A stretch of DNA of 64,000 bases from Patescibacteria group bacterium (GTDB lineage: Bacteria > Patescibacteriota > Patescibacteriia > SG8-24 > DYFX01): positions 117,453 through 181,452 of the forward strand of contig CP129476.1 of assembly GCA_030583805.1 (NCBI GenBank). The letters run 5' to 3'. Below the pieces are notes generated by a model, which was not told where the DNA came from, made no database searches, and was given only the letters and a program-made list of their open reading frames with translations. This document shows, piece by piece, positions 5,627 through 43,337 of the stretch. The stretch's first letter is position 1, and every line of letters begins with the position of its first letter. The position numbers were made by a program, and so were the translations under genes.

Positions 5627-6679
5627 ATGAAGACCTATCTCGTCACCGGCGCGGCCGGGTTCATCGGCATGCACGTCGCCAAGCGTTTGCTTGAGCGTGG
5701 CGATGTCGTGATCGGCCTCGACAACCTGAACGACTACTACGACGTTTCCCTGAAGGAAGCGCGTTTGGCGCAGCTCACTTCGCATCCGAATTTCCGCTTT
5801 GTGAAGCTCGACCTGGCCGACCGTGCGGGCATGAAAGCCGTGTTTGAAAACGAGGCCTTCGAAGTCGTCATCCATCTGGCGGCGCAAGCGGGCGTGCGCT
5901 ATTCGCTCATCAATCCGCAAGCCTACATCGATTCGAACCTGGTCGGTTTCGGCAACGTGATCGAGGGCTGCCGGCACAAGAAGGTCGCGCATCTCGTCTA
6001 TGCCTCCTCCAGCTCCGTGTACGGCGCCAACATCGAAACGCCGTTTTCCGTGAAGCACGGCGTTGATCATCAGGTGAGTCTGTACGCCGCGACGAAGAAG
6101 GCGAATGAACTCATGGCGCATACCTACAGCCATCTCTATGGGCTGCCGACCACTGGCCTGCGTTTCTTCACCGTCTACGGACCGTGGGGGCGTCCGGATA
6201 TGGCGATGTACAGCTTCACCAAGGCGATGTTGGAGGGAAAGCCGATCGACGTCTTCAATCACGGCAAGATGCAGCGCGACTTCACCTACATCGACGATAT
6301 CGTTGAAGGCGTGCTGCGCGTCGCCGACCATGTGCCGAAAGCCAGCGAGCTTTCCCCGAAGGACCGCCACCCGGGCGTGAGCCACGCGCCTTACCGCGTC
6401 TACAACATTGGAAACAACCAGCCAGTCGAGCTTGGACGTTTCATCGAAGAGCTCGAAAGAGCGCTTGGCGTGACGGCTGAAAAGCGGTACCTGCCCATGC
6501 AGCCGGGGGACGTCCCGGCTACCTATGCCGACGTGGACGATCTGATCCGTGACGTTGGGTTCCGTCCGTCAACCCCCATCGAGGAAGGCATCGCCAAATT
6601 CGTCGCTTGGTACCGTGAGTACCATAACCAGTCGTTTTCAGAAAAAACGGCTGAAATTAGCGAAATCCAGGCTGCCTGA
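5627..6679 (+). CDS. NAD-dependent epimerase/dehydratase (UDP-glucuronate 4-epimerase-like SDR)
   Basis: TGAAGFIG Rossmann motif, YAATK catalytic motif, GalE/WbpP-like architecture. AAAGGA RBS. Start is 1 nt after the alaS stop. Confidence 0.85.
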
Positions 6680-19769: not shown

Positions 19770-20564
19770 TTATGACAGCAAGTAGTGGGCGGTGAGCGAA
19801 CCGATCCCGAACGGGCTTTCGTAGCTTAGGATTTCCGGCGCGGCGTCGAGCGAATCCAATATGCCCGCGAGAATCGTAAGCGAAGGCAGGGCGCACTGCG
19901 CGGCTTTTTCGGCGAGCTGCGGCTCGAACGTGACGAGAGCCGACGGTTTTTTCTCCTGCAGAATCGCCAAGACCTTCTCGTCGAATTTGCGGCCGTACGG
20001 CGAATACCCGGCGGGCGAGGAGCGCGTCAGGCGGTGCGACAGGTCGGCTGAACAGATGACGGCAACGCGCCTGTCGCTATGCATCAGCACGTCTTGCAGG
20101 GCTTGCCCGAACTCGAAATGAGCCTTCGGCGACAAAAGCGAGGGCGCGATCGGCACGATCGCGACGGGGTTCAGCTTCGTCGCCAGATAGGTGAGGGGCA
20201 CGACGGTGCCGTAGTCGAGATCCGAATCCGACCGCAGCATGAGCGGCACGCAGCAATCTTCAAGATGTTCCTTGATGGCGCTCGTGAGCCGCATGTCCGA
20301 ACGGAACTGCATCGGCATTTCGAGGATTCCGAACTCCTTCAAGTCGGGCACGTAGCGATCCCGCACTTCCAGCGTGAAGTGATCCGGATTGATCCGTCCG
20401 TGCGGAGAGATGACGAGCAGCACGTCCGGCTTCGAAGCGACGAGCTCCTGTTCCAGGCGGTGCAACGCGGTGATTGTTTTTTTCAGCTTCTTCAAGTGCT
20501 CTTTCCCCACCGACGGCAGCAAGACCGGCGAGTGCGGGACGATCGAAGCGAAGACGAGTGACAT
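19770..20564 (-). CDS. MEMO1/AmmeMemoRadiSam-B-like protein (class III extradiol dioxygenase B-subunit fold)
   Basis: N-terminal IVPHSP and HGRINPDHFT motifs. About 264 aa, typical of the MEMO1 family. Confidence 0.55.
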   Translation of the reverse strand: MSLVFASIVPHSPVLLPSVGKEHLKKLKKTITALHRLEQELVASKPDVLLVISPHGRINPDHFTLEVRDRYVPDLKEFGILEMPMQFRSDMRLTSAIKEHLEDCCVPLMLRSDSDLDYGTVVPLTYLATKLNPVAIVPIAPSLLSPKAHFEFGQALQDVLMHSDRRVAVICSADLSHRLTRSSPAGYSPYGRKFDEKVLAILQEKKPSALVTFEPQLAEKAAQCALPSLTILAGILDSLDAAPEILSYESPFGIGSLTAHYLLS

Positions 20565-20565
20565 A

Positions 20566-21972
20566 TTATCGGGCCAACGCGGTTTGCGAGGCTCCGGCGG
20601 TCGTCGGCAGTCCTGTGACCGGCTGTCCGACCGGGTGCAGCGCCATGACCGCTTCGGTGGTCCAGATGATGCGCTTCCAAGAATAGCCGAGCTGCTCGAA
20701 CGCCTCGCCCGAGACGATCGGGCGCCGCTGGCCGTTCGAAACGACGTAGACGGCCTTGTTCGATCCTGGGCTCGTGATCAGGTCGCCGTCCTTGAATTTC
20801 AGGGGCTCGGCGGTCTCGTATTTTTCAAGCGTCTCCGGCGAGACGACGGAAATCCGCTTCGTCGGATAGTCCGCCTTCATGATCGAGGCGTCGATAATCG
20901 GCATTTTCTTTCCGTCCTCCACGAAGTAGACGCCGCCGGTCTTGTTGTTCTGCAGCAAGGCGCCTGTCGGATAGGCGCTCTTCAGCGTGATCGGATCGCC
21001 GTCGGCGTACGGCTCGAGGTCGTCGATATCGACGTCGTCGATCTCTTCGGGGTTGAAACCGATCGCGCGGAAGACGCTCATGGATTCGATCGGGCGTTTT
21101 TTGTCGCCTGAGAGCAGATAGACCGTGCCCGTCGCGGGATCGCGTACGAGCGAATAGTCCGCGAACGCGATGTCGGCGCCGCTTTCAAGGCTCGCGAGGA
21201 CGGTGTCGGAAACGGGGATGATCTTATTCTTGTCGACGCGCGTCGCGAGCGCGCTCTTGCTTGCGAATTTCCGCTTCAAGCCGCCTTGAATCAGATAGAC
21301 CGTACCGTCCGAGGCGGCAAGCGCCGAACCGTCAGGATAGCCGACCGAGAACCAGCGATCCCAAATGCGGCGCAAGAGCGCGTTGCCGTGCAAGTGCGGA
21401 TTGTAGGTGTACATGGCGGCCGTCGCGATATTCGCGGGCGTGACCGGCTGATTGTCGATCGTGGTCGTGCGGCCAGGGAAATACCCGAATGCGCGGCGGC
21501 TGCCGCAGCGCTCCGTCGAATCGCGGTAGAAGCATTCTACGAACGCGGCGGCGTTGATGATTTGCGCGGTGAAGCCGCGTGCCGGGTGCACCGTGTTGCA
21601 TGTGGAGCCGTCGGGGCGTCCGTACCCGGCCGCCCAATCGATTTGGCAGGCGCTCGGATTCCTGTCGTCAACAAGGCTCTGTTCTTTTTGGATAAGCGCA
21701 AGAAGAAACTTCGGGTTCACGTTCATCGCCTTGCCGTAGTAATCGATGATGTCTCCCGGCTTCTTCATCGAGCCGTCGAGATCCATGAAGGTCATCTTGG
21801 CAAGCGCGCCGCCTCGCGACTCTAAGAACTGTTGCGAAAAACCCGGCGGCACGTTCGTGTCGGTCAGGTCGTCGTCCGAGAGGACGTAGGAAGGGTTGGT
21901 TTCAGCGGCGTTCGCGGGTACGGCGGGCATGAGCAGCGAAAACGCCAGGAAATACAGGAGAAATTTCTTCAT
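20566..21972 (-). CDS. secreted protein: N-terminal lysozyme/transglycosylase-like region + four ~55-aa repeats
   Basis: ATG at 21972 gives signal peptide MKKFLLYFLAFSLLMPAVPANA. The ORF-track start at 22470 is a spurious extension. KFLLALIQKEQSL segment. Repeats TVYLIQGGLKRKF / TVYLLSGDKKRPI / GVYFVEDGKKMPI / AVYVVSNGQRRPI. Confidence 0.65.
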   Translation of the reverse strand: MKKFLLYFLAFSLLMPAVPANAAETNPSYVLSDDDLTDTNVPPGFSQQFLESRGGALAKMTFMDLDGSMKKPGDIIDYYGKAMNVNPKFLLALIQKEQSLVDDRNPSACQIDWAAGYGRPDGSTCNTVHPARGFTAQIINAAAFVECFYRDSTERCGSRRAFGYFPGRTTTIDNQPVTPANIATAAMYTYNPHLHGNALLRRIWDRWFSVGYPDGSALAASDGTVYLIQGGLKRKFASKSALATRVDKNKIIPVSDTVLASLESGADIAFADYSLVRDPATGTVYLLSGDKKRPIESMSVFRAIGFNPEEIDDVDIDDLEPYADGDPITLKSAYPTGALLQNNKTGGVYFVEDGKKMPIIDASIMKADYPTKRISVVSPETLEKYETAEPLKFKDGDLITSPGSNKAVYVVSNGQRRPIVSGEAFEQLGYSWKRIIWTTEAVMALHPVGQPVTGLPTTAGASQTALAR

Positions 21973-22059
21973 ATGGCAGCCGCATTTTACCACGCTGGCC
22001 GCTCGTTGACAATCCGCAAAAGCCGCGTTAGCGTGCGCATGGAAAGCAAGGAGGTCGTG

Positions 22060-22524
22060 ATGCTGTGTCTCCCTTGGTATTTCGTTCTGGCGATGGCCAC
22101 GCTCGCGCTTTTGCGTCTCGTCTACCGACACCGCGCGCTTCGCCGCGAGCGGCGCATCGAGGAAAACCTCGTGCATGGCGTCTTCTACCATCGCGAGATG
22201 AAACGCGGACAGAAAATCTGGTGTCGCACGGTGCACGGGTACGTGTACGAGATCGCGTTTCTGGAAGTGCAGAAAGGCTGCAGGCTCTATCAGATCCGGA
22301 AAGTGTATTTGGACGACGAGGGGCGGCAGTGCTTCGAGCCGAAACCGCAGCCGTTTACCTTCCGCCAGGTCGATATCCGCGTCGGGGAACGCTTCGTCTG
22401 CGCTCCCGCCTTCCGTTCGGCAGTCATCGTCGAAATTTCGCTCAGGATCCTCTATCCCACGCGAGCGCACAGGGAGGAATCACCGTCGATTCCTCCAACG
22501 TTTCCTCCACTGCGGGTCGTCTAG
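22060..22524 (+). CDS. membrane-anchored hypothetical protein
   Basis: ATG at 22060 with textbook RBS AAGGAGGT (4-nt spacer). N-terminal TM MLCLPWYFVLAMATLALLRLV. Confidence 0.45.
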   Translation: MLCLPWYFVLAMATLALLRLVYRHRALRRERRIEENLVHGVFYHREMKRGQKIWCRTVHGYVYEIAFLEVQKGCRLYQIRKVYLDDEGRQCFEPKPQPFTFRQVDIRVGERFVCAPAFRSAVIVEISLRILYPTRAHREESPSIPPTFPPLRVV

Positions 22525-22578
22525 GCCCGTTTTTTTCTTCGTTGCCGTTCCGTCCCGTGGACGGTACACTGGCGGCAT

Positions 22579-23736
22579 ATGGAAACCCACGCCTCTTTTC
22601 GCGTTGCCCGAGCGGGCATGTTGATCGCTCTGAATCTCGCTGTCGCACTCACCGTGCATGTCGCCTGGTCGGCTTGGCTGCCTTCGGCCGGAGCCGCGCA
22701 AAAATCGATCGCGCCCGCGAGCGAGGAAGAGCGCATGATTCAAGTGATCGCCAAGGCTTCGCCCGCGGTCGTTTCGATTCTCGTGCAACAAGAGGGGCAG
22801 CAGACGCTCACGGTGACGCTCGGCAACGGCGTCGAAGTTGAACAAGAGAAGCGCCCGCTCGTCGAAGTCGGAAAGGGGACGGGGTTCATCATGAGCGCCG
22901 ACGGTTTGATCGCCACGAACCGGCACGTGGCCTTTTCGCGCTCCGCGATTTTGACGGTTTTTCTGACCGACGGACGTTCGTTCAAAGCCCGTATCGTCGA
23001 CATCGATCCGGTCAACGATCTTGCGCTCATCAAAATCGACGCCAAGAACCTCCCGACGCTGGCGCTTGAGGCCGACGATGCCTATCGTCTCGGACAAACG
23101 ACGATCGCGATCGGCAACGCGCTTGGAAAATACGCGAACACGGTCACGCGCGGCGTTCTTTCCGGCGTCGATCGATACGTCGAGGCGGAAAACAACGTCA
23201 CGGGCGGAACCGAACGCCTCGAAGAGCTGCTTCAGACCGACGCCGCCATCAATTCCGGAAATTCCGGCGGCCCGCTCTTGAATCTTGACGGCAAGGTGAT
23301 CGGCATGAACACGGCGGTCGAGCACAGCGGCCAGGGGCTCGGATTCGCCATTCCCGTTTCGGAAATCCGCAAAGTCGTCGATTCGTACCGTCTCTACGGC
23401 GCGATCGCGCGCCCGCGGCTCGGCGTCAGATATTTCTCGATCACGCCGGAATTCCAGCTTGAACGCAAATTAGCCTACGGCTACGGCGCCTTGGTCGGCA
23501 CGGACGAACCCGGCGAAGCCGTCGTGCTTTACAACAGCCCCGCAGCTTCGGTCGGCTTGCGCGCCGGCGATATCATTTTGGAAGTCAACGGGAAGAAGCT
23601 TGAAGGAAAAATGACGCTTGCCAAGGCGGTGCAGTCGTTGCGCGTCGGCGATACCGTGACGATGAAGGTTGCGCGCGGCGAAGCGTTGCTCGTTCTCACG
23701 ACGCGTCTGGACGCGCATCCTCCGTACCAGCCCTGA
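22579..23736 (+). CDS. htrA: HtrA/DegP-family serine protease with PDZ domain
   Basis: Catalytic triad context TNRHV (His), DLALIKI (Asp), GNSGGPLLN (Ser). C-terminal PDZ. N-terminal membrane anchor. Confidence 0.85.
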   Translation: METHASFRVARAGMLIALNLAVALTVHVAWSAWLPSAGAAQKSIAPASEEERMIQVIAKASPAVVSILVQQEGQQTLTVTLGNGVEVEQEKRPLVEVGKGTGFIMSADGLIATNRHVAFSRSAILTVFLTDGRSFKARIVDIDPVNDLALIKIDAKNLPTLALEADDAYRLGQTTIAIGNALGKYANTVTRGVLSGVDRYVEAENNVTGGTERLEELLQTDAAINSGNSGGPLLNLDGKVIGMNTAVEHSGQGLGFAIPVSEIRKVVDSYRLYGAIARPRLGVRYFSITPEFQLERKLAYGYGALVGTDEPGEAVVLYNSPAASVGLRAGDIILEVNGKKLEGKMTLAKAVQSLRVGDTVTMKVARGEALLVLTTRLDAHPPYQP

Positions 23737-23737
23737 C

Positions 23738-25009
23738 ATGGTTTTTTCCCGACGCGCCCTGCAAACGCCGGATCGCTGGCATGCGCCGATTCACGCGCTC
23801 TGCTGGTTCGTGTTCGCAGGTACGTCGCTCGTGCTCGGGCTCTACTTCACCGCGCCGTCGCCGGACTGGGCGCCGATGATGTTTGCCGGAGCGACGTCGA
23901 CCGCTCCTTTGGCGGCAGCGGCAAACGCCGCGTTTCACGTGCCCATGCCCGAGGAAGTGCGGGGGATATACATGACGGCGGCGAAGGCGGCCTCAAAGAC
24001 GCAGCGCGCGGACTTGTTCGCGTACGTGGAACGCAATCGCCTGAATGCGATCGTGATCGACGTGAAGGATGACAACGGCCGCTTGGCCTTCATGCCGCAG
24101 CGCGCCTCGTTGCAAAGCGCCGCGCCGGAAGAAGCGACGATCAAGGATCTCGATGCGGTGCTGCGAGAAGCGGGGGAGCGCGGATTGTACCGTATCGCCC
24201 GCGTTTTCGTGTTTCAGGACCCCTCTTTCGTCGCGCGTTTTCCGGCCGAAGCGGTGCAAAAAACCTCCGGCGGCGTTTGGTCCGATTACAAAGGCGTGAC
24301 GTGGGTAGACGCCGCCTCGAAAGCCGCCTGGCGCTACAACGCCGAAGTCGCGCGTGAAGCGTATGCACGCGGCTTTGACGAGATCCAGTTCGACTACATT
24401 CGTTTTCCGAGCGACGGCCACATGCAATCGATCGTCTACGCGCGGCACGATGAGAGCCGGCCCAAGCATGAAGTGCTCCGCGATTTTTTCCGCTTTATGC
24501 ACGAGCAGCTTGAAGAAAAAGAGGGGATTCCGGTCTCGTACGACCTGTTCGGCTACGTGACGTGGTATATCGACTACGACCTCGGCATCGGCCAGCTTTT
24601 AGCGGACGCGCTGCCTCACGGTACGGCAATCTCCGCGATGGTGTATCCTTCTCATTATGGGGCCGGCACGCTCGGGTACGAAAACCCGGCCGAGCACCCG
24701 TACGAAATCGTCGCCGACAGCCTGAGGAAGGCCAATCGTCTCTACGCCATGCGCGATCAAGAATGCGCAGCGCTCGCTTCCGGCGAGAAAAGCGCTACCT
24801 CCACCTTCCTCCTGCCCTGCGGCGTACCGCTCGCGCACCACCGGCCGTGGCTCCAAGCGTTCGACATCGGGGCGGTGTATGATGCAGAAAAGATTCGGGC
24901 GCAAATCAGCGCGACGCGCGACCAGGGCGGCAAAGGATATTTGCTCTGGAACGCCCGGAACGTGTACAGGGACTTTAACCTCGCAGCGACGTCTTCGCCT
25001 GCATTGTAA
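23738..25009 (+). CDS. membrane-anchored GH-like TIM-barrel protein (DUF4015/GHL10-like putative glycoside hydrolase)
   Basis: ATG 23738, 1 nt after the htrA stop. IVIDVKDDNG, GVTWVD, FDEIQFDYIRFPSDG motifs typical of DUF4015. Confidence 0.55.
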   Translation: MVFSRRALQTPDRWHAPIHALCWFVFAGTSLVLGLYFTAPSPDWAPMMFAGATSTAPLAAAANAAFHVPMPEEVRGIYMTAAKAASKTQRADLFAYVERNRLNAIVIDVKDDNGRLAFMPQRASLQSAAPEEATIKDLDAVLREAGERGLYRIARVFVFQDPSFVARFPAEAVQKTSGGVWSDYKGVTWVDAASKAAWRYNAEVAREAYARGFDEIQFDYIRFPSDGHMQSIVYARHDESRPKHEVLRDFFRFMHEQLEEKEGIPVSYDLFGYVTWYIDYDLGIGQLLADALPHGTAISAMVYPSHYGAGTLGYENPAEHPYEIVADSLRKANRLYAMRDQECAALASGEKSATSTFLLPCGVPLAHHRPWLQAFDIGAVYDAEKIRAQISATRDQGGKGYLLWNARNVYRDFNLAATSSPAL

Positions 25010-25045
25010 GAAACGTTCGCGCCTTACGTCTCCATAAAGGTATCT

Positions 25046-26428
25046 ATGCCTACACCCAAACATCTTCTTGCCGCAGCGGTCGTCAGCCTGTCGTTCTTCG
25101 GCGCCGTTGGAACGGCGCGCGCCGAAGGGCCATTGATGCTTGAAATGGCAGACGGCCTCTTTTATAACCCGGCCTCCGGCCTCCTCGCCGAATCGCGCGG
25201 CGCCCTCTTGAAGCTGATCGAAGCCCAAGCCCCGCACGTGGTTGCCGTCGAAACGCCGGCCGCTCCCGCAGTTCCGGAGCCCGCAGCGCCCGAAAGCGTC
25301 GACGGTCTCGCGCCGACGCTCCAAAACGCCGTGCTGCGCGCTCGCGCGGCGCTGCAGGAGCGGATCGACACCGCCGAAAAAACCAAGCCGGACGTCGTCA
25401 CGAGCTATGACGTGTGGGTTGACGTGACCTTGGCGGTTTGGAACGCGCAGACGAATGAAATTCAATACGTCGAAGCGAAGAAAAACGGCACGAAGATCCA
25501 GTTTGCTGACGCGCCGGACGCCTACGCGATCAGCGTGAAGCGGACGAACGGCGTGAACTCCACGTTCGTCGTCGATACGCCCGAGCGCGTCGTTGTGGCG
25601 GTGCGGTATCCTATTTTCAAGAACATCTCGACGTCCAAGACGAAACCGAAGTACGAACTCCATGACGTCGTCTATACGCCGTATTCCGACGGCTTGCACA
25701 CGGCTGAAATGGCCGCCTGGGGCAAGAACGTGCTGCGTCTCGAAATCCTCGCGGCATACGACGCGTTGCGTTCAACCGGCGTCCGTTCTCGCGCTTTCCC
25801 CGACCGTTTGGTCGCCGACGTGGTCGATCCGCATCTCGTCGAGGCGATCGCGATCATCGAGCACGTCGGTTTGGGGGCGCTTTCGGGCCCGAACGCCGAG
25901 GAGGCCATGGACGCTTTTTACGTCACGATGGGCGGAAACCAAGATAAGGCATACATTTACGCGCGTTCGTCGGCTGGCGCGCTCGGTCTCGTGCAGTTCA
26001 TTCCGAGCACGTACGCCATCATGGCCAAGCGCAAGGAGTTGAATCTGATCTCGGACTTTACGAAGGGAATGTCTGATCCTGTCAACGCCATCAAGGCGCA
26101 AATCGCGTATCTCGACGCCATTCTCGCGTCGATGCCCCTGGCCGTGAAGGACATGCACTACGTCGATCCGGCGCGCGTCGACGAGTATCTCGCCGCCGCC
26201 TACAACACGGGCGAAACGCGCGTGAAGCGGGCGATCAAGCAGTGGGGCGACACATGGTCCGAGCCGCACAATGAAGAGATCGCAGCGCTCGCAAAGCGGT
26301 ACGGTGCGCGGAGCGCGGCCGTCAACACGATGAAGAAAGCGACATTGCTTCCGGAAACCGTCACGTACGTAAAAAAACTCCGGCAGGCGCTGAAAGTACT
26401 CAGCCCGCCGGAGCTTCCAACGACGTAA
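25046..26428 (+). CDS. secreted protein with C-terminal lytic transglycosylase (SLT) domain
   Basis: Signal peptide. Ala/Pro-rich linker. SLT motif SSAGALGLVQFIPSTY. Confidence 0.65.
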   Translation: MPTPKHLLAAAVVSLSFFGAVGTARAEGPLMLEMADGLFYNPASGLLAESRGALLKLIEAQAPHVVAVETPAAPAVPEPAAPESVDGLAPTLQNAVLRARAALQERIDTAEKTKPDVVTSYDVWVDVTLAVWNAQTNEIQYVEAKKNGTKIQFADAPDAYAISVKRTNGVNSTFVVDTPERVVVAVRYPIFKNISTSKTKPKYELHDVVYTPYSDGLHTAEMAAWGKNVLRLEILAAYDALRSTGVRSRAFPDRLVADVVDPHLVEAIAIIEHVGLGALSGPNAEEAMDAFYVTMGGNQDKAYIYARSSAGALGLVQFIPSTYAIMAKRKELNLISDFTKGMSDPVNAIKAQIAYLDAILASMPLAVKDMHYVDPARVDEYLAAAYNTGETRVKRAIKQWGDTWSEPHNEEIAALAKRYGARSAAVNTMKKATLLPETVTYVKKLRQALKVLSPPELPTT

Positions 26429-27277
26429 TTACTGCGAGAGCGTGTTCAGGTTCTGGAGCTGAAGCTGGAAGGCGTTCTGCACTTCTGCCGGCGAGAGAAC
26501 TTTGAGCGCGGCGGAATCCACTTGCGACGCCTCGCAGTTCGCTTCGGCCAAGCACTTGTCGGCGCAGCCGACGATTTTGGCCAAGCACTCGTTCACGCAG
26601 GCCGTGTCCGGAACGTGGCATGTTTTGCCGGATTTCGGATCTTCGCACGTGACGACGCGCGGCGGACAGGCGACGAAGCAGGTTTTCGACGTGTCTTCAG
26701 TGCAGCCGTTCGTTTTGACGCAGGTGTCGAAGGTTGAGGTGCTGCAGCTGGCGGTCGTTGTCGTGGTCGTCGTGGTGGTAATGGCTTTCGGAGCTTCGGC
26801 CATTGCGGTGATGATCGGTTCGACCGAGGTCTGAAGCTCGACCGTCGTCGTCTCCGGAGCCGCGGCAAGACCTTCTTCAAGCAATGTCGTGGAAACCGTG
26901 GTTGATTCCGTGACCAGCGCCGTCCAGGCCGTCGACTCTTCGGTCGTATCGGCCGTCGAAGCCAGTTTGACGGCGGAGTCGATCAGCGCAAGCGAATCGT
27001 CGGCGGCCGCGACGGAGGCCTCAACGTTTCCTTCCGAGCTCATGACAGCCGATTCCGCGGCGCGCTCTTCGGAAACAGCGAGCGTGGTCTCGATTTTTGA
27101 TTCCGTCGTGAACGAGAAGAAGATCGAAAGCGAATCGAGCGTTTGGTCAAAGAAGCTGAGCGGACTGTCCGGGAGAATTCCGGCAGTATCATACGTGGCG
27201 TCGGAAAGCGTGGCGGCCGAGACGGGCAAAGCCAGCGCGATACCGAGCGAGGCGAACGCGACGGTGAGTTTGCGCAT
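26429..27277 (-). CDS. secreted Thr/Ser-rich protein with Cys-rich C-terminal module
   Basis: Signal peptide MRKLTVAFASLGIALALPVSA. T10 run. 14 Cys in the last about 90 aa. Confidence 0.5.
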   Translation of the reverse strand: MRKLTVAFASLGIALALPVSAATLSDATYDTAGILPDSPLSFFDQTLDSLSIFFSFTTESKIETTLAVSEERAAESAVMSSEGNVEASVAAADDSLALIDSAVKLASTADTTEESTAWTALVTESTTVSTTLLEEGLAAAPETTTVELQTSVEPIITAMAEAPKAITTTTTTTTTASCSTSTFDTCVKTNGCTEDTSKTCFVACPPRVVTCEDPKSGKTCHVPDTACVNECLAKIVGCADKCLAEANCEASQVDSAALKVLSPAEVQNAFQLQLQNLNTLSQ

Positions 27278-27340
27278 AAGAAAAGAATGAATAGTGATCC
27301 CAGATTACCACGCAGGACGGTTGTGCTACAATGCGCGCAT

Positions 27341-29953
27341 ATGCGGAAGTTCCGTTTTTTCGTTGTCGCGGCGTTTCTCGCGCTCGGCGCGCCGTTTGCG
27401 GCTTCGGCGGCGAGCCCGCTGATCAAAGGCTCGACGCCGGCGGTCTATTACGTCGATGAAGGCAAGCGCTACGTCTTTCCAAACGAGAAAGTGTACTTTT
27501 CCTGGTATGCGGGCTTTTCAGACGTGCGCACCGTTTCAGACGAAGAGCTCGCGTCGTACCTGATCGGCGGTCACGTGACCTACAAGCCGGGATCGAGACT
27601 CGTGAAGCTGCAAAGCGATCCGCGCGTGTTCGCAGTCGGCGCCGGAGGACGCTTGCGATGGATCGCGACGGAAACCGCCGCCCGCGACCTGTATGGCGAC
27701 AACTGGAATACGAAGGTGGACGACCTCTCCGACGCCTTCTTTTTTGCGTATAAAGAGGGGGAGCCTGTCGCTTCGGCGGCGGATTTCGACATGGAGGCCG
27801 AACAGGGCGTCGCCTCGATCGCCGACGACTTCGCCGCTCGGAACGGCGCCGTCTCGACAACGGATTTTACGGCAGTGCGAACCGGTCTTTGGAGCGATCC
27901 GGCCGTGTGGGGAGGCGCGAGACCGGGTGCCGGCGCGCGCGTGACGATCCCGAACGGACAAAAGGTTACGTATGATTTGGAAAATGGTCCGACGCTCAAG
28001 TCGCTCGACGTGCTCGGAACGCTTGAGTTCGCCCAAGACCGTTCGATGCGCTTGGCCGCCCGGCAGATCGTGGTGCGCGGCGCCATGACGGCCGGAACGC
28101 CGCTTGCGCCGTTTCGCGCCGACAAGCGTCTAGAAATCGCGCTCACGGGCGCGGCGACGGCGCCCATTGCCGACGACGGATTCATCGTTGACGGCGGAAC
28201 CTTGTCGCTCCACGGAGCGGACGTCGGTTTTTCTTGGACGCGGCTGGCGGCGCCAGCTGCCGTCGGCGCGACCGAAATCACGCTTGTCGCTCCGGTCGCG
28301 TGGGAGGCGGGATCCGAGATTGCCGTGCTCGGCGCGGGCAATGAAGAGCAGGAAGTGCGCGTCATCAAGGCGGTTGACGGAGCGACGATCACGCTCGACC
28401 GTCCGCTTGAAAAAACCCATCGCGCGGAAGCGGGGTTGCGTTCGGAGGTTGCGCTGCTTGATCGGAATATCGAGATTCACGGCGTCGGCAACGGCTACGG
28501 ATCGTATGTACGCGGCATCAATCGCGCTTCCATGACGCTCCGGAACGTGGAACTTTCCTCGCTCGGCCGCAAAGGCGTTTCCGGGCAGCACCCGCTTCTC
28601 TTCGACGGCATTTCGAAGCCGGTCTTCGCTTCGAGCGTCGTGAAAGACGCCGGCAATCGGTGCCTGACGCTGCGTCAGACGACGGGAGCGGAGATCAGCG
28701 ACAACGTCGCGCTCAACGCCTACGGTCATTGCTTCGCGACTGAAGACGGCGCCGAGACCGGCAACGTCTTTTCCGGAAACCTGGCCGCGCGCATACGGCC
28801 CGGCGCGCTTTTGGGCGATGAAACGCCGTCGGCGTTCCTGTTCAGGCATCCCGGAAACGAGGTTGAACGCAACGTCGCGGTCGGAGCCGCCGGTTTCGGC
28901 TATTGGTACTTGCTGGCCAATGAAGCGACGACGAACGGCGGCGTGAGGCTTCATCCGCGCGAAGCGCTGCTCGGTTCTTTTGCCGACAATCAAGCGCGCA
29001 GCAACGGGAAAGTCGGATTGTATATCGACGACGGCAAGGGCAGGGGAGATTATATTCCCGGAGCGAAAGCGACGTTTTCCGGTTTCACGAGCGTGTTAAA
29101 CGGCGAGCGCGGGTTTTGGATCCGCGGCGTGAACCTTGAAATGACGAACGCCTTCATCGCCGAGAATCCGATCGGCGGCACGTTTGCCGCCTTTGGCGCG
29201 CTGCTCAGGAATTCAACGATTGCCGGGCGTCTTCCCGGTTCCGCTTCGCCGGGACCCGCCAAGTACGGATTCACGTTCGATGACGGTCCGATCAGCGTGC
29301 AGGACGTCGCATTCGAGCGTTTCGAGGACGGCGCGTCGGCGCTCGGTTTCGAAGAGCGGAGCGAAGATCTTCCGGACGCCCGCAGCAGTTTCAGCGGCCT
29401 CACGTTTACCGACGCGACGCCCTGGTCAGCGGCTGATCCGGTCACCCCCGGCGATCACATGGCGATCGTCCGCGATCTTGACGCGGGCGACGTCGTGGGA
29501 GCGAACTCGCGCTTCTTCGGCGCAGAGTGCGTTCTCGAAGAGGGGAATGTGCGGCGCTGTCCCGGTCCGTACGCGCAGCTCGAGGTCGTGCTGCGAAACG
29601 GTGCCAGCAATAGGAACGTCGTGTTCACCGAACTTGGAACCGGCGCCGCCGTCACGCTTGCTCCGGGACCCGCGTTCGACGGCGAGTACGCATACGCCAC
29701 GGTGGCGGAGAACGGCGCCTATCGTGTGGAGTCGCCATCGGTACCCGTGATGGTCCTGAGTTACAGCGGTTCCATTTCGCCGCTCCTCGTGCGCGTGCCG
29801 GCCGGCCTTGGCGCTGCCGTCCGCGTTGACGGCGAGACTTTGCCGGGCGTCGATCTTGCGGCGCTCGCGGCAGGAAGTTGGGCGTACGACACCGCGACAT
29901 CCGAGGCCGTGCTCTGGCTCCGTCCGGGAGACGAATTTGAATTGACTCGCTGA
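27341..29953 (+). CDS. large secreted protein: two N-terminal ~55-aa repeats + G8 domain + right-handed beta-helix (PbH1) repeats
   Basis: ATG 27341 gives signal peptide MRKFRFFVVAAFLALGAPFAASA. AVYYVDEGKRYVFPNEKVYF repeat motif. G8-like segment WSDPAVWGG...VTIPNGQKVTYDL. Repetitive NVA/GN beta-helix turns. Confidence 0.6.
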   Translation: MRKFRFFVVAAFLALGAPFAASAASPLIKGSTPAVYYVDEGKRYVFPNEKVYFSWYAGFSDVRTVSDEELASYLIGGHVTYKPGSRLVKLQSDPRVFAVGAGGRLRWIATETAARDLYGDNWNTKVDDLSDAFFFAYKEGEPVASAADFDMEAEQGVASIADDFAARNGAVSTTDFTAVRTGLWSDPAVWGGARPGAGARVTIPNGQKVTYDLENGPTLKSLDVLGTLEFAQDRSMRLAARQIVVRGAMTAGTPLAPFRADKRLEIALTGAATAPIADDGFIVDGGTLSLHGADVGFSWTRLAAPAAVGATEITLVAPVAWEAGSEIAVLGAGNEEQEVRVIKAVDGATITLDRPLEKTHRAEAGLRSEVALLDRNIEIHGVGNGYGSYVRGINRASMTLRNVELSSLGRKGVSGQHPLLFDGISKPVFASSVVKDAGNRCLTLRQTTGAEISDNVALNAYGHCFATEDGAETGNVFSGNLAARIRPGALLGDETPSAFLFRHPGNEVERNVAVGAAGFGYWYLLANEATTNGGVRLHPREALLGSFADNQARSNGKVGLYIDDGKGRGDYIPGAKATFSGFTSVLNGERGFWIRGVNLEMTNAFIAENPIGGTFAAFGALLRNSTIAGRLPGSASPGPAKYGFTFDDGPISVQDVAFERFEDGASALGFEERSEDLPDARSSFSGLTFTDATPWSAADPVTPGDHMAIVRDLDAGDVVGANSRFFGAECVLEEGNVRRCPGPYAQLEVVLRNGASNRNVVFTELGTGAAVTLAPGPAFDGEYAYATVAENGAYRVESPSVPVMVLSYSGSISPLLVRVPAGLGAAVRVDGETLPGVDLAALAAGSWAYDTATSEAVLWLRPGDEFELTR

Positions 29954-38983: not shown

Positions 38984-39101
38984 TTGAAATACAACTGAAT
39001 AGTTATCCAGAGTACGGTGAGGGATATCGGCCCTACGACCCGTCGGCAACCAGGCTTCGGTCACGGTGCCTCCGACCCGAAAGGGGAAGATAATTCTTGA
39101 A

Positions 39102-39140
39102 TGGACTCTTCCTTGCAGGGGAGAGTTTTTCTCTTTATTA
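39102..39140 (+). terminator. possible rho-independent terminator downstream of HNH gene
   Basis: 8-bp stem ACTCTTCC/GGGGAGAGT (one G-U) followed by TTTTTCTCTTT. Confidence 0.3.
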
Positions 39141-39212
39141 GACGCACAAGAGTCGATATTTATTATGAAATTGACCGGTAAACACGTAATGCGAGTACCG
39201 TGGATAACTCTT

Positions 39213-39244
39213 GTTAAGTTTTGTTATGTCTACTGGTATAATCA
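39213..39244 (+). promoter_or_regulatory. putative promoter of R-M operon with extended -10 (TGgTATAAT)
   Basis: Perfect TATAAT preceded by TGG, 25 nt upstream of the MTase ATG. TTGTTA -35-like hexamers upstream. Confidence 0.35.
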
Positions 39245-39268
39245 GCCTAAAGATTAGGTAAATCTAGC

Positions 39269-40504
39269 ATGAGATTGATCACATTAAGAGAGGCCTCAGA
39301 AATTTTGGGCATGCATCCTAATACGCTTCGGAATTGGGAAAGATCCGGCAGGATTAAGTGCGTAAGGATCGGCGCTCGTGGCGACAGGCGCTTTGATTAC
39401 GACTCACTATTGGAAGTCGTGGGAAACGACCAAAGCTTTAAAAAAAAATATACATTGGTTGATCTTTTTTGCGGATGTGGTGGGCTCTCAAAGGGGTTTG
39501 AAATGACCGGATCGTTTAAAACCATTTTTGGTATTGATAACTGGAAGCCAGCATTGGAAACTTTTGAATTAAACCACCCTGAGGCGAGAGGGGTACAGTG
39601 GTCACTGGAGAAAAGAAATATAGATGCCCTAATTAAAGAGTTGGGTGAGTTTGATGTGGATGTCGTTGTGGGCGGACCACCATGCCAGGGATTCTCATTG
39701 GCAGGGCCTCGAAATTTCAACGACACAAGGAATTCTTTGTACCTCGGTTTCCTAAGGTTTGTTAAACAGACATCTCCCCGAGCTTTCGTTATTGAGAATG
39801 TTCCGGGCCTAGCCTCGCTTTACGGAGGCGTTGTAAAAGACCGGATCATTAAGGAATTCACAAAACTCGGGTACAACGTGATCTCTAAGGTTTTGCTAGC
39901 TTCGGACTATGGAGTCCCACAAAACCGCAGAAGGCTTGTATTCGTTGGAGTAAAGGGTGGAACTTTTAGTTTTCCCAAACCTACGCATGGTGAAAATTTA
40001 AAGCAGAAAATTACAGTGAATGACGCCGTTTCCGATTTGCCGTCATTAAGGAGTGAGTTGGGACAGGAGGTAATGCCTTACGGACAAAGAGTTAAGAATG
40101 AATTCCAAGAGTATTGCAGAAGAAATAGTGATCGGCTACATAATCATGTGGCCGCAAATCACGACGATGCTACCAGAAGAATAATCGCACTTGTTCCCGA
40201 AGGCAAAAATTATAAGTCTTTACCCGAAGTTCTAAGAGGCACGCGCAATTTTCATGTGGCGTGGACGAGGTTCGATGGTAGGTGCCCAGCTCCCACCATC
40301 GATACGGGCCACCGCCATCACTTCCACCACAAGGAAAACAGGGTGCCCACAGTCAGGGAATCAGCACGACTGCAGTCGTTTCCAGATGATTTCATCTTCC
40401 TTTCTTCCAAGACAAATCAATACAAACAGGTTGGAAATGCAGTTCCCCCGCTTTTAGCAAAGCAGATCGCGCTGTCTTTACTGGATTCATTTGATAAAAA
40501 ATGA
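39269..40504 (+). CDS. DNA (cytosine-5)-methyltransferase with N-terminal MerR/excisionase-type HTH domain
   Basis: HTH_17-like N-terminus (MRLITLREASEILGMHPNTLRNWERSGRIKCVRIG). m5C-MTase motifs I DLFCGCGG, IV GGPPCQGFS, ENV, QNRRR, RESARLQSFPDDF, GNAVPP. Confidence 0.9.
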   Translation: MRLITLREASEILGMHPNTLRNWERSGRIKCVRIGARGDRRFDYDSLLEVVGNDQSFKKKYTLVDLFCGCGGLSKGFEMTGSFKTIFGIDNWKPALETFELNHPEARGVQWSLEKRNIDALIKELGEFDVDVVVGGPPCQGFSLAGPRNFNDTRNSLYLGFLRFVKQTSPRAFVIENVPGLASLYGGVVKDRIIKEFTKLGYNVISKVLLASDYGVPQNRRRLVFVGVKGGTFSFPKPTHGENLKQKITVNDAVSDLPSLRSELGQEVMPYGQRVKNEFQEYCRRNSDRLHNHVAANHDDATRRIIALVPEGKNYKSLPEVLRGTRNFHVAWTRFDGRCPAPTIDTGHRHHFHHKENRVPTVRESARLQSFPDDFIFLSSKTNQYKQVGNAVPPLLAKQIALSLLDSFDKK

Positions 40505-40505
40505 C

Positions 40506-41936
40506 ATGAAAAAGATATACAGAGTTCCCGATGAGTATAATTTTCGACTGCACCACATCCGCCCCAGATTCAAAAATGACGTCGAGAACGTCTTGTTTTT
40601 CATGGCTTCTGAAATATCAAAAATTACTCCTGCGCCGGAGGAGGATTTTGCTAGAGAGTTGAACAAGGCTATCAGGCGCTACCCAGGCAATGCCTCCAAA
40701 GCCGAAAAAACAATTGATAATTGGCGGACCGAAATAACGGCTCTCTTTGGATTGATTGAATATGATGGTGAGATCGCAAGGCCCGGGCGAATGGCGAATT
40801 TACTGGCAGAATCTCAGGATTTGATCGAGTTTTTTCGCTATTTCCTATTTTACTTCCAATATCCTGGCGGCCATCTGAAACCCCACGAATCCTTGGAGTT
40901 TATCGAGGCTGGCGTACGTTTTAAACCGGCCAAGTATTTGTTGCAGGTGCTTTTAGATGGGAAAAAGATTTTGGGTGAAAACGCGAAGTTTGGCATAACA
41001 AAAGCCGAGGCTACTCACTGTATTTTTAACGACTTGCGAGTGACGCGTGATGGCCGTCCAGCAAACAAGACTGCCGAGTTGATTATTAGCAATAGAAACG
41101 ATAAGGCCGAATACCCTCAGGGAGGGGATATCGTTCGTTATGCCGGGGACATACTTGACTATATGGTGTTGGCGGATCTCGTTAGACTGAGACCGAACTA
41201 CAAATACTATTTGAATCCAGTGCATTTCGAGACCATACAGGCCTTTGTTGGAAATAATGACTATTTTGAACCATACGAGAGCTTGTATAAGCACGGACAT
41301 CCCTTGTTAGCCAATGTAACGGCATCCAAGGAAGATTGGTTTCATTATGTGAACAACAAACTTGATTCAAGTATATTTGAGGCGGACGCTTTTTCTATCA
41401 TTGAAGAGGCTGGTGAGACAGTTGACAGTGAAAAGGAAAGTTTCTTTATTGGCGAGGTCTTAAAAAAAATCCGGGATCTCAAAGAGTCGGAATCTATTAA
41501 CACCAAGGAGGTTGGAGATGTGGGCGAGGCCATCGTTATCGAACATGAAAAAAATAGAATGATGCGATTGGATCGCGAAAGCCTGCTGCACCTGATTAAA
41601 AAAATTCCAGAATCTTACGCGATGGGTTATGATATAAATTCATTTGAAGGCATCGGAGAAATACGAAGATACATTGAAGTCAAGACGAGTATAAGTCGAG
41701 GAAAACTTGCCGCGCAGTTTTTCCATATGACTCCCAGTGAATGGAGTTCTGCAGAGACGCTTAAGGATACCTACTTTGTGTACCGCTTAATGATCTCGGC
41801 GCAGGGCATCAGCCTTTTTCTAATACAGGATCCAGTTGGAAAATATAAGAGCGACCGCCTGAGCATGGCTCCTCGCGACGGTGCCGACATTCACTACACT
41901 GAGAGATCGGGCAACTGGGAAGAGCTTCTTGTATGA
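40506..41936 (+). CDS. candidate restriction endonuclease: novel N-terminal domain + C-terminal DUF3883 (PD-(D/E)xK-like) domain
   Basis: C-terminal about 150 aa fits the DUF3883 pattern (GDVGEAIVIEHEKNRM...GYDINSFEGIGEIRRYIEVKTS...FFHMTPSEWSSAE...TYFVYRL). Sandwiched between two m5C MTases with ATGA coupling to the downstream gene. Confidence 0.6.
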   Translation: MKKIYRVPDEYNFRLHHIRPRFKNDVENVLFFMASEISKITPAPEEDFARELNKAIRRYPGNASKAEKTIDNWRTEITALFGLIEYDGEIARPGRMANLLAESQDLIEFFRYFLFYFQYPGGHLKPHESLEFIEAGVRFKPAKYLLQVLLDGKKILGENAKFGITKAEATHCIFNDLRVTRDGRPANKTAELIISNRNDKAEYPQGGDIVRYAGDILDYMVLADLVRLRPNYKYYLNPVHFETIQAFVGNNDYFEPYESLYKHGHPLLANVTASKEDWFHYVNNKLDSSIFEADAFSIIEEAGETVDSEKESFFIGEVLKKIRDLKESESINTKEVGDVGEAIVIEHEKNRMMRLDRESLLHLIKKIPESYAMGYDINSFEGIGEIRRYIEVKTSISRGKLAAQFFHMTPSEWSSAETLKDTYFVYRLMISAQGISLFLIQDPVGKYKSDRLSMAPRDGADIHYTERSGNWEELLV

Positions 41937-42922
41937 GAGTGCGAAAAATTAAAATAGCTTCATTTTTTAGTGGATGCGGCGGTATGGATCTCGGTGTCGA
42001 GGGCGGCTTTTCTTTCCTGGAAAAAAAGTATCCTAGACATCCCACACAGACTGTTTTTGCGACTGATTATGATCAGAAAATTTCTGAAATATACAATCAG
42101 AATTTTCTCACCGATATTGTTGTGAAAGATATTAGAAATCTGGACGCTGAAGAAGTGCCAGACCACGATGTTCTTACAGGAGGGTTTCCATGCCAATCTT
42201 TTTCAGTTGTCGCGCAGAATCCGAAACGGCTCGGCTATAAGGATGTTAGAGGGCAACTGTTTTTCGAAATGTGCAGAATTCTGAGAGAGAAGAAGCCCTC
42301 GGTGTTCGTTGGAGAAAATGTAAAGGGCCTTTTGTCGGCGAATGGCGGAGAGGCGTTCCCTCTTGTGATCAAAGAGTTTGAGAATGCCGGTTACCATGTT
42401 AAGCACAAGGTTTTAAATGCGTCCCACTACGGGGTGCCCCAAAAGAGGGAAAGGGTATTTATTGTCGGTTTTCGAAGTAAAAAGGCTTTTGATTCTTTTA
42501 ACTTTCCTAAACCAACGACGGAGAACGGGCCCGTTCCGATTTCTTCCGTTGTCATCCCGGAAAACGAAGTAGAAAAAGTACACTACTTTAGCAAGAAAGC
42601 GATTCAAGGCCTGAGCCGTTCAAAAAATCATAAGCTGATGAATAAGGGCAGGGCCCAAAGATTGGACCAGCCTTGCAACACGGTTGGAGCACATCTGGCT
42701 AAAGTGAGTTTGAATAGCACGGATCCGGTACTCTGTTTAAAAGGAAAGTACCGGATGTTTACGCCACGCGAGGTTGCTCGAATCCAATCCTTTCCCGATA
42801 ATTTTGTGCTTTCCGGGTCGAGAACTGTTAACTATAAGGCGCTGGGTAACGCGGTTGCGCCGGTGGTGATGTGGCATGTGACAAGAGAAATCGTTAAGGC
42901 GCTCGGCGAGTACGGCAAGTAA
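41933..42922 (+). CDS. DNA (cytosine-5)-methyltransferase (second MTase of operon)
   Basis: Motifs FFSGCGG, GGFPCQSFS, ENV, QKRERVF, REVARIQSFPDNF, GNAVAPVV. Confidence 0.9.
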   Translation: MRVRKIKIASFFSGCGGMDLGVEGGFSFLEKKYPRHPTQTVFATDYDQKISEIYNQNFLTDIVVKDIRNLDAEEVPDHDVLTGGFPCQSFSVVAQNPKRLGYKDVRGQLFFEMCRILREKKPSVFVGENVKGLLSANGGEAFPLVIKEFENAGYHVKHKVLNASHYGVPQKRERVFIVGFRSKKAFDSFNFPKPTTENGPVPISSVVIPENEVEKVHYFSKKAIQGLSRSKNHKLMNKGRAQRLDQPCNTVGAHLAKVSLNSTDPVLCLKGKYRMFTPREVARIQSFPDNFVLSGSRTVNYKALGNAVAPVVMWHVTREIVKALGEYGK

Positions 42923-42923
42923 T

Positions 42924-43337
42924 ATGGCCGACATGTTCAGCAAGAAAAGACGGAGTGAAATAATGTCGAAAATTCGCTCAAAAAATACGGGCGCAGAACG
43001 TTTAGTGTTCAGGCATCTTCGTGCAAAAGGGTTGCACTTTCAAAAGCATTATAAAGGCGCTCCAGGCAGCCCTGATATCGCCTTGCCGAAGAAAAAGCTT
43101 GCGGTTTTTATCGACGGGGACTTTTGGCACGGAAGGCATCTGAACCGCCTCTTGGTAAAAGGTACAAAGAACTATTGGGTAATGAAAATCACGACCAACA
43201 TAAAACGGGATCGTCGCCAAAGAGCAGCATTAAAAAAAGGTGGTTGGAAGATCTTAAAGGTTTGGGAAAGCGACCTTAAACGTGTAAGTACAAGGTACGA
43301 CCAGCTATTAAAAGTTGAAAAGTTCATTAAAAACTAA
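42924..43337 (+). CDS. vsr: very-short-patch-repair endonuclease
   Basis: RSEIMSKIRSKNTGAE...PGSPDIALPKKKLAVFIDGDFWHG...GWKILKVWE Vsr signature. Starts 1 nt after the MTase stop. Confidence 0.85.
   Translation: MADMFSKKRRSEIMSKIRSKNTGAERLVFRHLRAKGLHFQKHYKGAPGSPDIALPKKKLAVFIDGDFWHGRHLNRLLVKGTKNYWVMKITTNIKRDRRQRAALKKGGWKILKVWESDLKRVSTRYDQLLKVEKFIKN

Follow-up and report, generated by a model that had tools for sequence, protein, structure and literature searches.

EccB-type repeats in two predicted secreted proteins of a Patescibacteria bacterium: a candidate cell-wall anchor related to the EccB repeats of type VII secretion

Introduction

EccB proteins of the type VII secretion system (T7SS; Pfam family PF05108) carry four extracytoplasmic repeats, R1-R4, each a domain of about 55-60 amino acids (aa) with a four-stranded sheet and two helices (PDB 4KK7, 3X3M, 5CYU, 6SGY and 7NPS). 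In EccB1 the repeat comprises approximately 55 residues and packs pairwise with its neighbour (PMC4769845). An N-terminal cytoplasmic segment and a single membrane helix come first, after which a central beta-sheet core interrupts the series of repeats (R1-core-R2-R3-core-R4); the gene lies in a T7SS operon. Contact of EccB with the cell wall has been put forward in the literature only as a suggestion (PMC4769845; PMC6986878). Here we analyse a stretch of 64,000 nucleotides from a Patescibacteria group bacterium (assembly GCA_030583805.1, contig CP129476.1, positions 117,453 to 181,452 of the forward strand; hereafter the window), in which two predicted secreted proteins, referred to as A and B, share a repeat of about 60 residues that is present four times in A and twice in B. 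As judged from sequence and predicted fold, this repeat is homologous to R1-R4 of EccB, and it probably serves as a non-catalytic anchor that holds the enzymes bearing it to a wall polymer.

Several described modules may be compared with the repeat. The classical anchors LysM, SH3b, SPOR, CW_binding_1/2 and SLH have the same inferred role, being non-catalytic tandem repeats placed at either end of peptidoglycan hydrolases and further secreted enzymes, but they show no sequence or fold relationship to the EccB-type repeat. PlyCB, which belongs to the streptococcal phage lysin PlyC (4F87), is a separate 72-aa subunit that assembles into an octameric ring rather than forming a tandem array; it was absent from the Foldseek matches of the A and B models, and no sequence similarity to it was detected. 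The wall-binding domain of the Enterococcus phage endolysin LysIME-EF1 (6IST) is the best non-EccB match by fold in the PDB for the repeat pair of B, although a weak one (probability 0.51, template modelling score [TM] 0.2-0.37). The phage protein family phrog_9616, in contrast, is truly homologous in sequence to one repeat pair, and its annotation gives no function.

Six copies of one repeat in two secreted proteins

The features of protein A are:
20566..21972, minus strand: open reading frame of protein A, 468 aa, with a Sec-type signal peptide, an N-terminal domain and four repeats
21907..21972, minus strand: signal peptide, residues 1-22, cleavage after ANA (MKKFLLYFLAFSLLMPAVPANA before the cut, AE after it)
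21343..21900, minus strand: N-terminal domain, residues ~25-210, probably a GH73-like glycosidase of the lysozyme superfamily
21163..21339, minus strand: R1, residues 212-270, EccB-type repeat
20974..21162, minus strand: R2, residues 271-333, EccB-type repeat
20794..20973, minus strand: R3, residues 334-393, closest to R1
20611..20793, minus strand: R4, residues 394-454, closest to R2

Those of protein B are:
27341..29953, plus strand: gene of protein B, 870 aa, with a signal peptide, two repeats, a G8 domain and a beta-helix
27341..27409, plus strand: signal peptide, residues 1-23, cleavage after ASA as read from the sequence (…APFAASA before the cut, AS after it)
27413..27583, plus strand: B1, residues 25-81, EccB-type repeat
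27584..27775, plus strand: B2, residues 82-145, divergent copy packed against B1
27908..28249, plus strand: G8 domain, residues 190-303 (PF10162, E 2.7e-21, 76.1 bits, cut-off 22.9)
28499..29020, plus strand: CEMIP-type right-handed beta-helix, residues 387-560 (PF24606, E 1.1e-30, 107.4 bits, cut-off 27.3; also PF13229)

The signal peptide of A shows, on reading its sequence, a lysine-rich n-region, a hydrophobic core and an AxA motif, and residues 2-17 form a helix in the AlphaFold model. The start codon assigned to B is supported by the homologue at locus L003, which is 869 aa long. Behind the N-terminal domain of A, R1 to R4 follow each other as a contiguous tandem array of units of approximately 60 aa. 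The initial annotation had described four tandem repeats in A and two more at the N-terminus of B, and all six copies do align with the core that it reported.

For the repeats of A, the resemblance between copies clearly exceeds that between shuffled sequences. All six pairs that can be formed among the A repeats score z = 3.7-11.4 in the shuffle control, with 0-4 of 500 shuffles equalling the real score, and R3 and R4 each reach z ~5 against B1, while B2, compared as a single sequence, scores weakly (z -0.2 to 3.5). The decisive comparison is that of separate repeat profiles built from 37 homologues of A and 16 B-type homologues, which hhalign aligns with a probability of 97.8% (E 7.8e-13). 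At the level of the individual copies, hhalign probabilities range from 96 to 99.5% among R1-R4, and amount to 96.9% for R4-B1, 87.5% for R2-B2 and 71% for B1-B2. In a reciprocal hmmsearch of the 691 six-frame open reading frames of the window, each of the two proteins was the sole significant non-self match of the other (3.9e-7 and 5.8e-9). AlphaFold modelling, which the initial annotation had suggested, yielded the same beta-beta-beta-alpha-beta-alpha unit in all six copies, both in the model of A (predicted local distance difference test score [pLDDT] 84) and in an independent model of the B di-repeat (pLDDT 90, predicted TM score [pTM] 0.82), where the two copies form one compact unit. The repeat is a real module common to A and B.

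Within A, R1 is closest to R3 (99.45%) and R2 to R4 (98.67%), and the array is therefore a duplicated pair. A strict alternation of two repeat types was considered as a general rule and rejected: the abab order holds in the A family, but only 286 of 677 adjacent pairs alternate in other arrays, for which reason the pair is not claimed as the general unit.

Homology to the repeats of EccB

The initial annotation had assigned the repeat to no recognisable family, and this part of it does not stand. The single, weak Pfam match of protein A is to PF05108 (T7SS_ESX1_EccB), at 16 bits and hence below the curated cut-off of 27. The same model matches 13 of the 37 A-family members (best 1.5e-7), 8 of 40 other carriers of the repeat (best 8.8e-17, above the curated cut-off) and 7 of 60 further carriers. 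Pfam models other than PF05108 do not cover the repeat, neither Pfam nor NCBIfam has a model dedicated to it, and NCBIfam gave no match for A or B. When a profile of the repeat alone (alignment A4, 73 repeats) was compared with all PDB sequences, Mycobacterium tuberculosis EccB1 came out on top (E 5e-5) with a match that spans R1 end to end and part of R4, followed by M. smegmatis EccB1 (0.017) and EccB3. Searches of the PDB sequences with single sequences or whole-protein profiles returned no match, so that EccB was reached by the repeat-only profile alone. Against an alignment of the products of seven annotated plasmid-borne eccB genes, each located among eccA, eccCa, eccD or espG, hhalign aligned the A4 profile with a probability of 95.5% (E 1.4e-8) over 59 columns. 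These correspond to EccB columns 72-130, that is, to R1, which the crystal-structure paper delimits in EccB1 as S74-M124 (PMC4769845). The consensus common to both groups reads ...L....G.[VL]Y.[VI]..G..[RH]P[IV].[SN]...[AF]..[LI]G......V....L...P.G..[VI].

Structure comparison leads to the same family. The top 11 Foldseek matches of the model of A in the PDB are all EccB5, EccB1 or EccB3 (E 3e-7 to 3e-4, probability 0.99-1.00), and the top 10 of the B pair model are all EccB chains (best probability 0.96). The fold predicted for the repeats of A and B agrees with that published for the EccB1 repeat, and as in EccB the repeats are extracytoplasmic, occur in multiples and pack in pairs. Sequence, profile-profile and predicted-fold evidence thus agree that the repeat is homologous to R1-R4 of EccB.

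A and B are nevertheless not EccB proteins, because they have no membrane helix, no central core domain and no T7SS neighbours. Their signal peptides look cleavable, and their repeats are contiguous arrays attached to Sec-secreted enzymes instead of being distributed around a core behind a membrane anchor. Whereas genuine eccB genes adjoin eccA, eccCa, eccD and espG, the neighbours of A and B are genes for a Memo-like protein, def, fmt, HtrA, a DUF4015 protein, an SLT protein, a DUF5667 protein and PGI, and no T7SS genes, such as those for EccC, EccD, MycP or WXG100 proteins, were found near A or B, either in the window or in the loci of relatives that were examined. No account of an EccB-type repeat outside T7SS was found in the literature; the "EccB repeat" superfamilies of CATH/Gene3D may already label some carriers in InterPro.

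A different explanation of the repeat would be a chance or compositional resemblance, or divergent membership of LysM, SH3b, SPOR, CW_binding_1/2 or PG_binding. Two observations could be quoted in its favour, namely that B2 as a single sequence barely rises above its shuffles and that a few A-family members match Choline_bind_4 (E ~0.02). The profile-level statistics, the thousands of homologues described below and the consistent predicted fold all speak against it, as does the failure of the Pfam and NCBIfam searches to find any of those families. For LysM, SH3b, SPOR, CW_binding_1, CW_binding_2 and PG_binding_1, there was no Pfam match in A or B at E<=1, none in the 37 homologues at E<=0.1 and none in 100 other carriers, in keeping with the view of the initial annotation that the repeat does not look like LysM, SH3b, SPOR or CW_binding repeats. 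By the A-B profile match, the homologue census and the hhalign alignment with EccB, this explanation is effectively refuted.

The enzyme domains of A and B

The N-terminal domain of A occurs only in the A family and has no sequence match in Pfam (including PF01832), NCBIfam or the PDB. Across 37 homologues, Q95-K96-E97-Q98 and Y190/P192 are invariant. Foldseek relates its model to the autolysin AtlE (4pi7; probability 0.92, E 0.085, TM 0.42) and to further GH73 autolysins, C. perfringens Acp (8yxn/5wqw) and pneumococcal LytB (7pj3), these matches being consistent and of moderate strength. Because of the GH73 matches and the invariant residues, the domain is probably a lysozyme-like (GH73-like) glycosidase, in which Glu97 (QKEQS) is invariant. 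Protein B lies above the curated Pfam cut-offs for both G8 and CEMIP_beta-hel, and its G8/CEMIP-type beta-helix presumably acts on a polysaccharide. The B-type repeat pair is mobile, since it is also found on either side, N- or C-terminal, of domains such as cupredoxin and Big_1.

Carriers of the repeat and its proposed role

The initial annotation had also proposed to search with a profile of the repeat, and in a library of 1.84 billion proteins clustered at 50% identity such a search recovers 13,891 cluster representatives at E<=1e-3, of which 8,128 score E<=1e-10. In the best 150 of the 13,891, between 4 and 25 copies were matched, and the longest of these proteins has 3,254 aa. The repeat is not confined to Patescibacteria, as indicated by the name on one cluster. 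A Pfam scan of 100 carriers without the architecture of A found a peptidoglycan-hydrolase domain in 53 of them, with the catalytic domain either before or after the repeat array. The partner domains, as numbers of these 100 carriers, are:
SpoIID: 26 carriers
Amidase_2: 22 carriers
Glucosaminidase: 2 carriers
CHAP: 2 carriers
Peptidase_M23: 1 carrier
Subtilase (Peptidase_S8): 5 carriers
CAP: 2 carriers
SNase (nuclease): 1 carrier
PhoD: 1 carrier
RHS: 2 carriers
PA14: 2 carriers
Various immunoglobulin-like (Ig-like) domains are present as well.

This pattern of partners, together with the secreted location of the proteins, the modularity of the repeat and a weak kinship of the EccB repeat with phage wall-binding domains, leads us to read the EccB-homologous repeats of the Sec-exported proteins A and B, as the most probable interpretation, as non-catalytic wall-polymer anchors for enzymes. 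In the proposed mechanism, A and B would be exported by Sec bearing the same accessory alpha/beta module of about 60 residues; the repeats would then bind a wall polymer non-covalently, either peptidoglycan or a secondary glycan of the wall, and so retain each enzyme in the cell envelope, and the presence of several copies would add avidity. The probable glycosidase A and the G8/beta-helix protein B would in this way be kept in the wall zone of a single-membrane cell. That the repeat might be a cell-wall or glycan-binding anchor had already been suggested by the initial annotation. Its genomic association with peptidoglycan hydrolases, in 53 of the 100 other carriers, supports that idea, whereas binding to a wall polymer is, like the catalytic activity of both enzyme domains, something that we infer.

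On the main rival reading, the repeats would have a structural role as spacers, stalks or oligomerisation modules: like those of EccB in its periplasmic assembly, they would work through contacts between proteins, projecting or assembling the enzymes across the envelope instead of binding a wall polymer. In EccB, neighbouring repeats pack in pairs and build up a rigid, elongated body whose hydrophobic core is continuous (PMC4769845), which makes a structural role a live alternative; the B pair is likewise predicted as one compact unit (pTM 0.82), and giant surface proteins of the RHS, Ig-like and PA14 kinds carry long arrays, of up to 25 copies. The 53 hydrolase-bearing proteins among the 100 carriers and the range of other exoenzymes, on the other hand, form the pattern of a wall anchor, and stand-alone repeat pairs of about 115 aa, which occur in phages and in Patescibacteria, fit a binding unit better than a spacer. 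On balance, a purely structural role appears rather unlikely.

Phage proteins bear on the target of the repeat. The phrog_9616 family (118 positions, one repeat pair) matches protein A with E 1.8e-22, and stand-alone proteins of this type were found in 50 Streptomyces phage records, while the best viral match by fold is a 115-aa Rhodococcus phage protein, and the fold of the repeat is weakly similar to phage lysins. In Streptomyces phage Tomas (locus L005, NC_070781.1), positions 5947-6387 encode a stand-alone homologue of one repeat pair of ~146 aa, directly after a minor tail protein of ~2000 aa and a few genes before the holin; this protein could be a tail- or lysis-associated wall binder. 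Another notable architecture is that of a giant RHS protein (P0137, 3254 aa), whose residues 72-2800 comprise 12 EccB-type repeats together with DUF6531, RHS repeats, an RHS core and Ig-like domains, and the repeat is therefore also built into proteins of the toxin-delivery type. Cultivated Patescibacteria are known as epibionts. It is in this context that the repeats may be imagined to bind to the surface or wall of a different cell, be it an epibiont's host or a competitor, and so to direct lytic enzymes and toxins outward instead of keeping autolysins in the wall of the producer itself. The RHS-type giants, the stand-alone forms in Streptomyces and Rhodococcus phages, the location of the Tomas gene between minor tail protein and holin and the epibiotic habit would all be compatible with such a target. 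Protein A itself, however, looks single-copy, has a housekeeping gene context (Memo-like, PriA, def and fmt) and is present in at least 555 species, which fits an autolysin, and we regard recognition of foreign cells as quite unlikely for this repeat.

Five points weigh against the anchoring of wall enzymes by EccB-homologous repeats. By sequence, a profile of the B repeats alone is not significant against EccB, and the link between B and EccB is made by way of the A-type profile and of the fold. TM-scores against EccB, computed globally, are low (about 0.14-0.3), since the EccB repeats sit around a central core domain and A and B are plain tandem arrays. The GH73-like assignment of the N-terminal domain of A is made from the predicted fold only (Foldseek E 0.085). 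Many carriers of the repeat are not wall hydrolases but RHS, PA14, Ig-like or subtilase proteins. Finally, the packed repeats of EccB make up a rigid rod with a part in protein assembly.

The anchor reading may be extended beyond A and B. It is possible, and proposed here tentatively, that EccB-type repeats constitute a very large unnamed superfamily (about 14,000 clusters at 50% identity) of wall-targeting modules in Patescibacteria, Actinomycetota and actinophages, which would position hydrolases, other exoenzymes and RHS giants, and from which the EccB of T7SS would have been derived by insertion of the core domain into a four-repeat array.

Distribution and gene context of protein A

Members of the A family occur in the genomes of at least 555 GTDB species, the record titles of which include Falkow-, Uhr-, Komeili-, Magasanik-, Kuenen-, Buchanan- and Veblenbacteria. 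Many records are titled "uncultured Gammaproteobacteria bacterium"; the closest named relatives all belong to Patescibacteria lineages, and the taxonomy in these titles appears to be a placeholder or an error of the source records.

The genes around A in the window that are not listed above include:
19770..20564, minus strand: LigB/Memo-like gene (PF02900/PF01875), beginning 1 nucleotide after the stop codon of A
26429-27277, minus strand: Thr-rich/Cys-rich secreted protein between the SLT protein and B, with an N-terminal DUF5667 (E 1.5e-11), a poly-Thr tract and a Cys-rich C-terminus

Synteny was counted over 80 species loci of the A family. In 69 of them the LigB/Memo-like gene lies immediately downstream of A on the same strand; def and fmt are near A in 53, and AMMECR1, PriA, def and fmt often follow the Memo-like gene. 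A predicted secreted wall enzyme is here coupled with a Memo/AMMECR1 module. The neighbours listed by the initial annotation are present in the window as it described them: HtrA (Trypsin_2 and PDZ), the GH-like protein (a DUF4015 putative glycosyl hydrolase), the SLT protein, the Thr/Cys-rich DUF5667 protein and the G8/CEMIP beta-helix protein, to which PGI can be added. Its phrase cell-wall-hydrolase neighbourhood is overstated. HtrA adjoins A in 4, SLT in 2 and the G8 protein in 1 of the 80 loci, all from close relatives, so that the hydrolase neighbourhood is a local arrangement, and none of the 80 related loci showed a homologue of the Thr-rich/Cys-rich DUF5667 protein beside A. This count rules out a conserved operon of cell-wall hydrolases around A. 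Protein A has the appearance of a housekeeping enzyme of the patescibacterial envelope, in operon-like association with the Memo-like gene, def and fmt, and not that of a part of a hydrolase island.

A restriction-modification cassette elsewhere in the window

The window has a G+C content of ~60%. An island of low G+C (0.445-0.49 vs ~0.60 elsewhere) at 39000-43337 on the plus strand contains a restriction-modification cassette, directly preceded by a riboswitch for S-adenosylmethionine (SAM):
39000..39096, plus strand: SAM riboswitch (RF00162, 49.6 bits vs a gathering score of 44.4), directly upstream of the cassette
39269..40504, plus strand: C5 DNA methylase fused to a helix-turn-helix domain
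40491..41936, plus strand: BpuJI-type endonuclease
41933..42922, plus strand: second C5 methylase
42924..43337, plus strand: Vsr
The position of a SAM-I riboswitch before DNA methylases, which consume SAM, instead of before genes for methionine or SAM biosynthesis is unusual.

Implications

Much of what is described here has precedents: the fold of the repeat has been solved, the EccB family is known, and autolysins with modular wall anchors are a familiar theme; the system is not of a new kind. What appears to be undescribed is the EccB repeat as a free tandem module that is very abundant and preferentially fused to peptidoglycan hydrolases. A module left as "hypothetical" in thousands of proteins of uncultured bacteria hereby receives a name and a structural frame, that of the EccB-type repeat, and among its carriers is a predicted secreted enzyme that is conserved in many lineages of Patescibacteria. 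The association of the repeat with SpoIID, amidase and other hydrolase domains provides independent genomic support for the idea that the extracytoplasmic repeats of EccB contact the wall. Small soluble arrays are easier to handle than a membrane-embedded ESX complex and, if the superfamily reading is true, would offer a simple route to the wall ligand and to a test of the ten-year-old proposal that the ESX machine is anchored to peptidoglycan by EccB.

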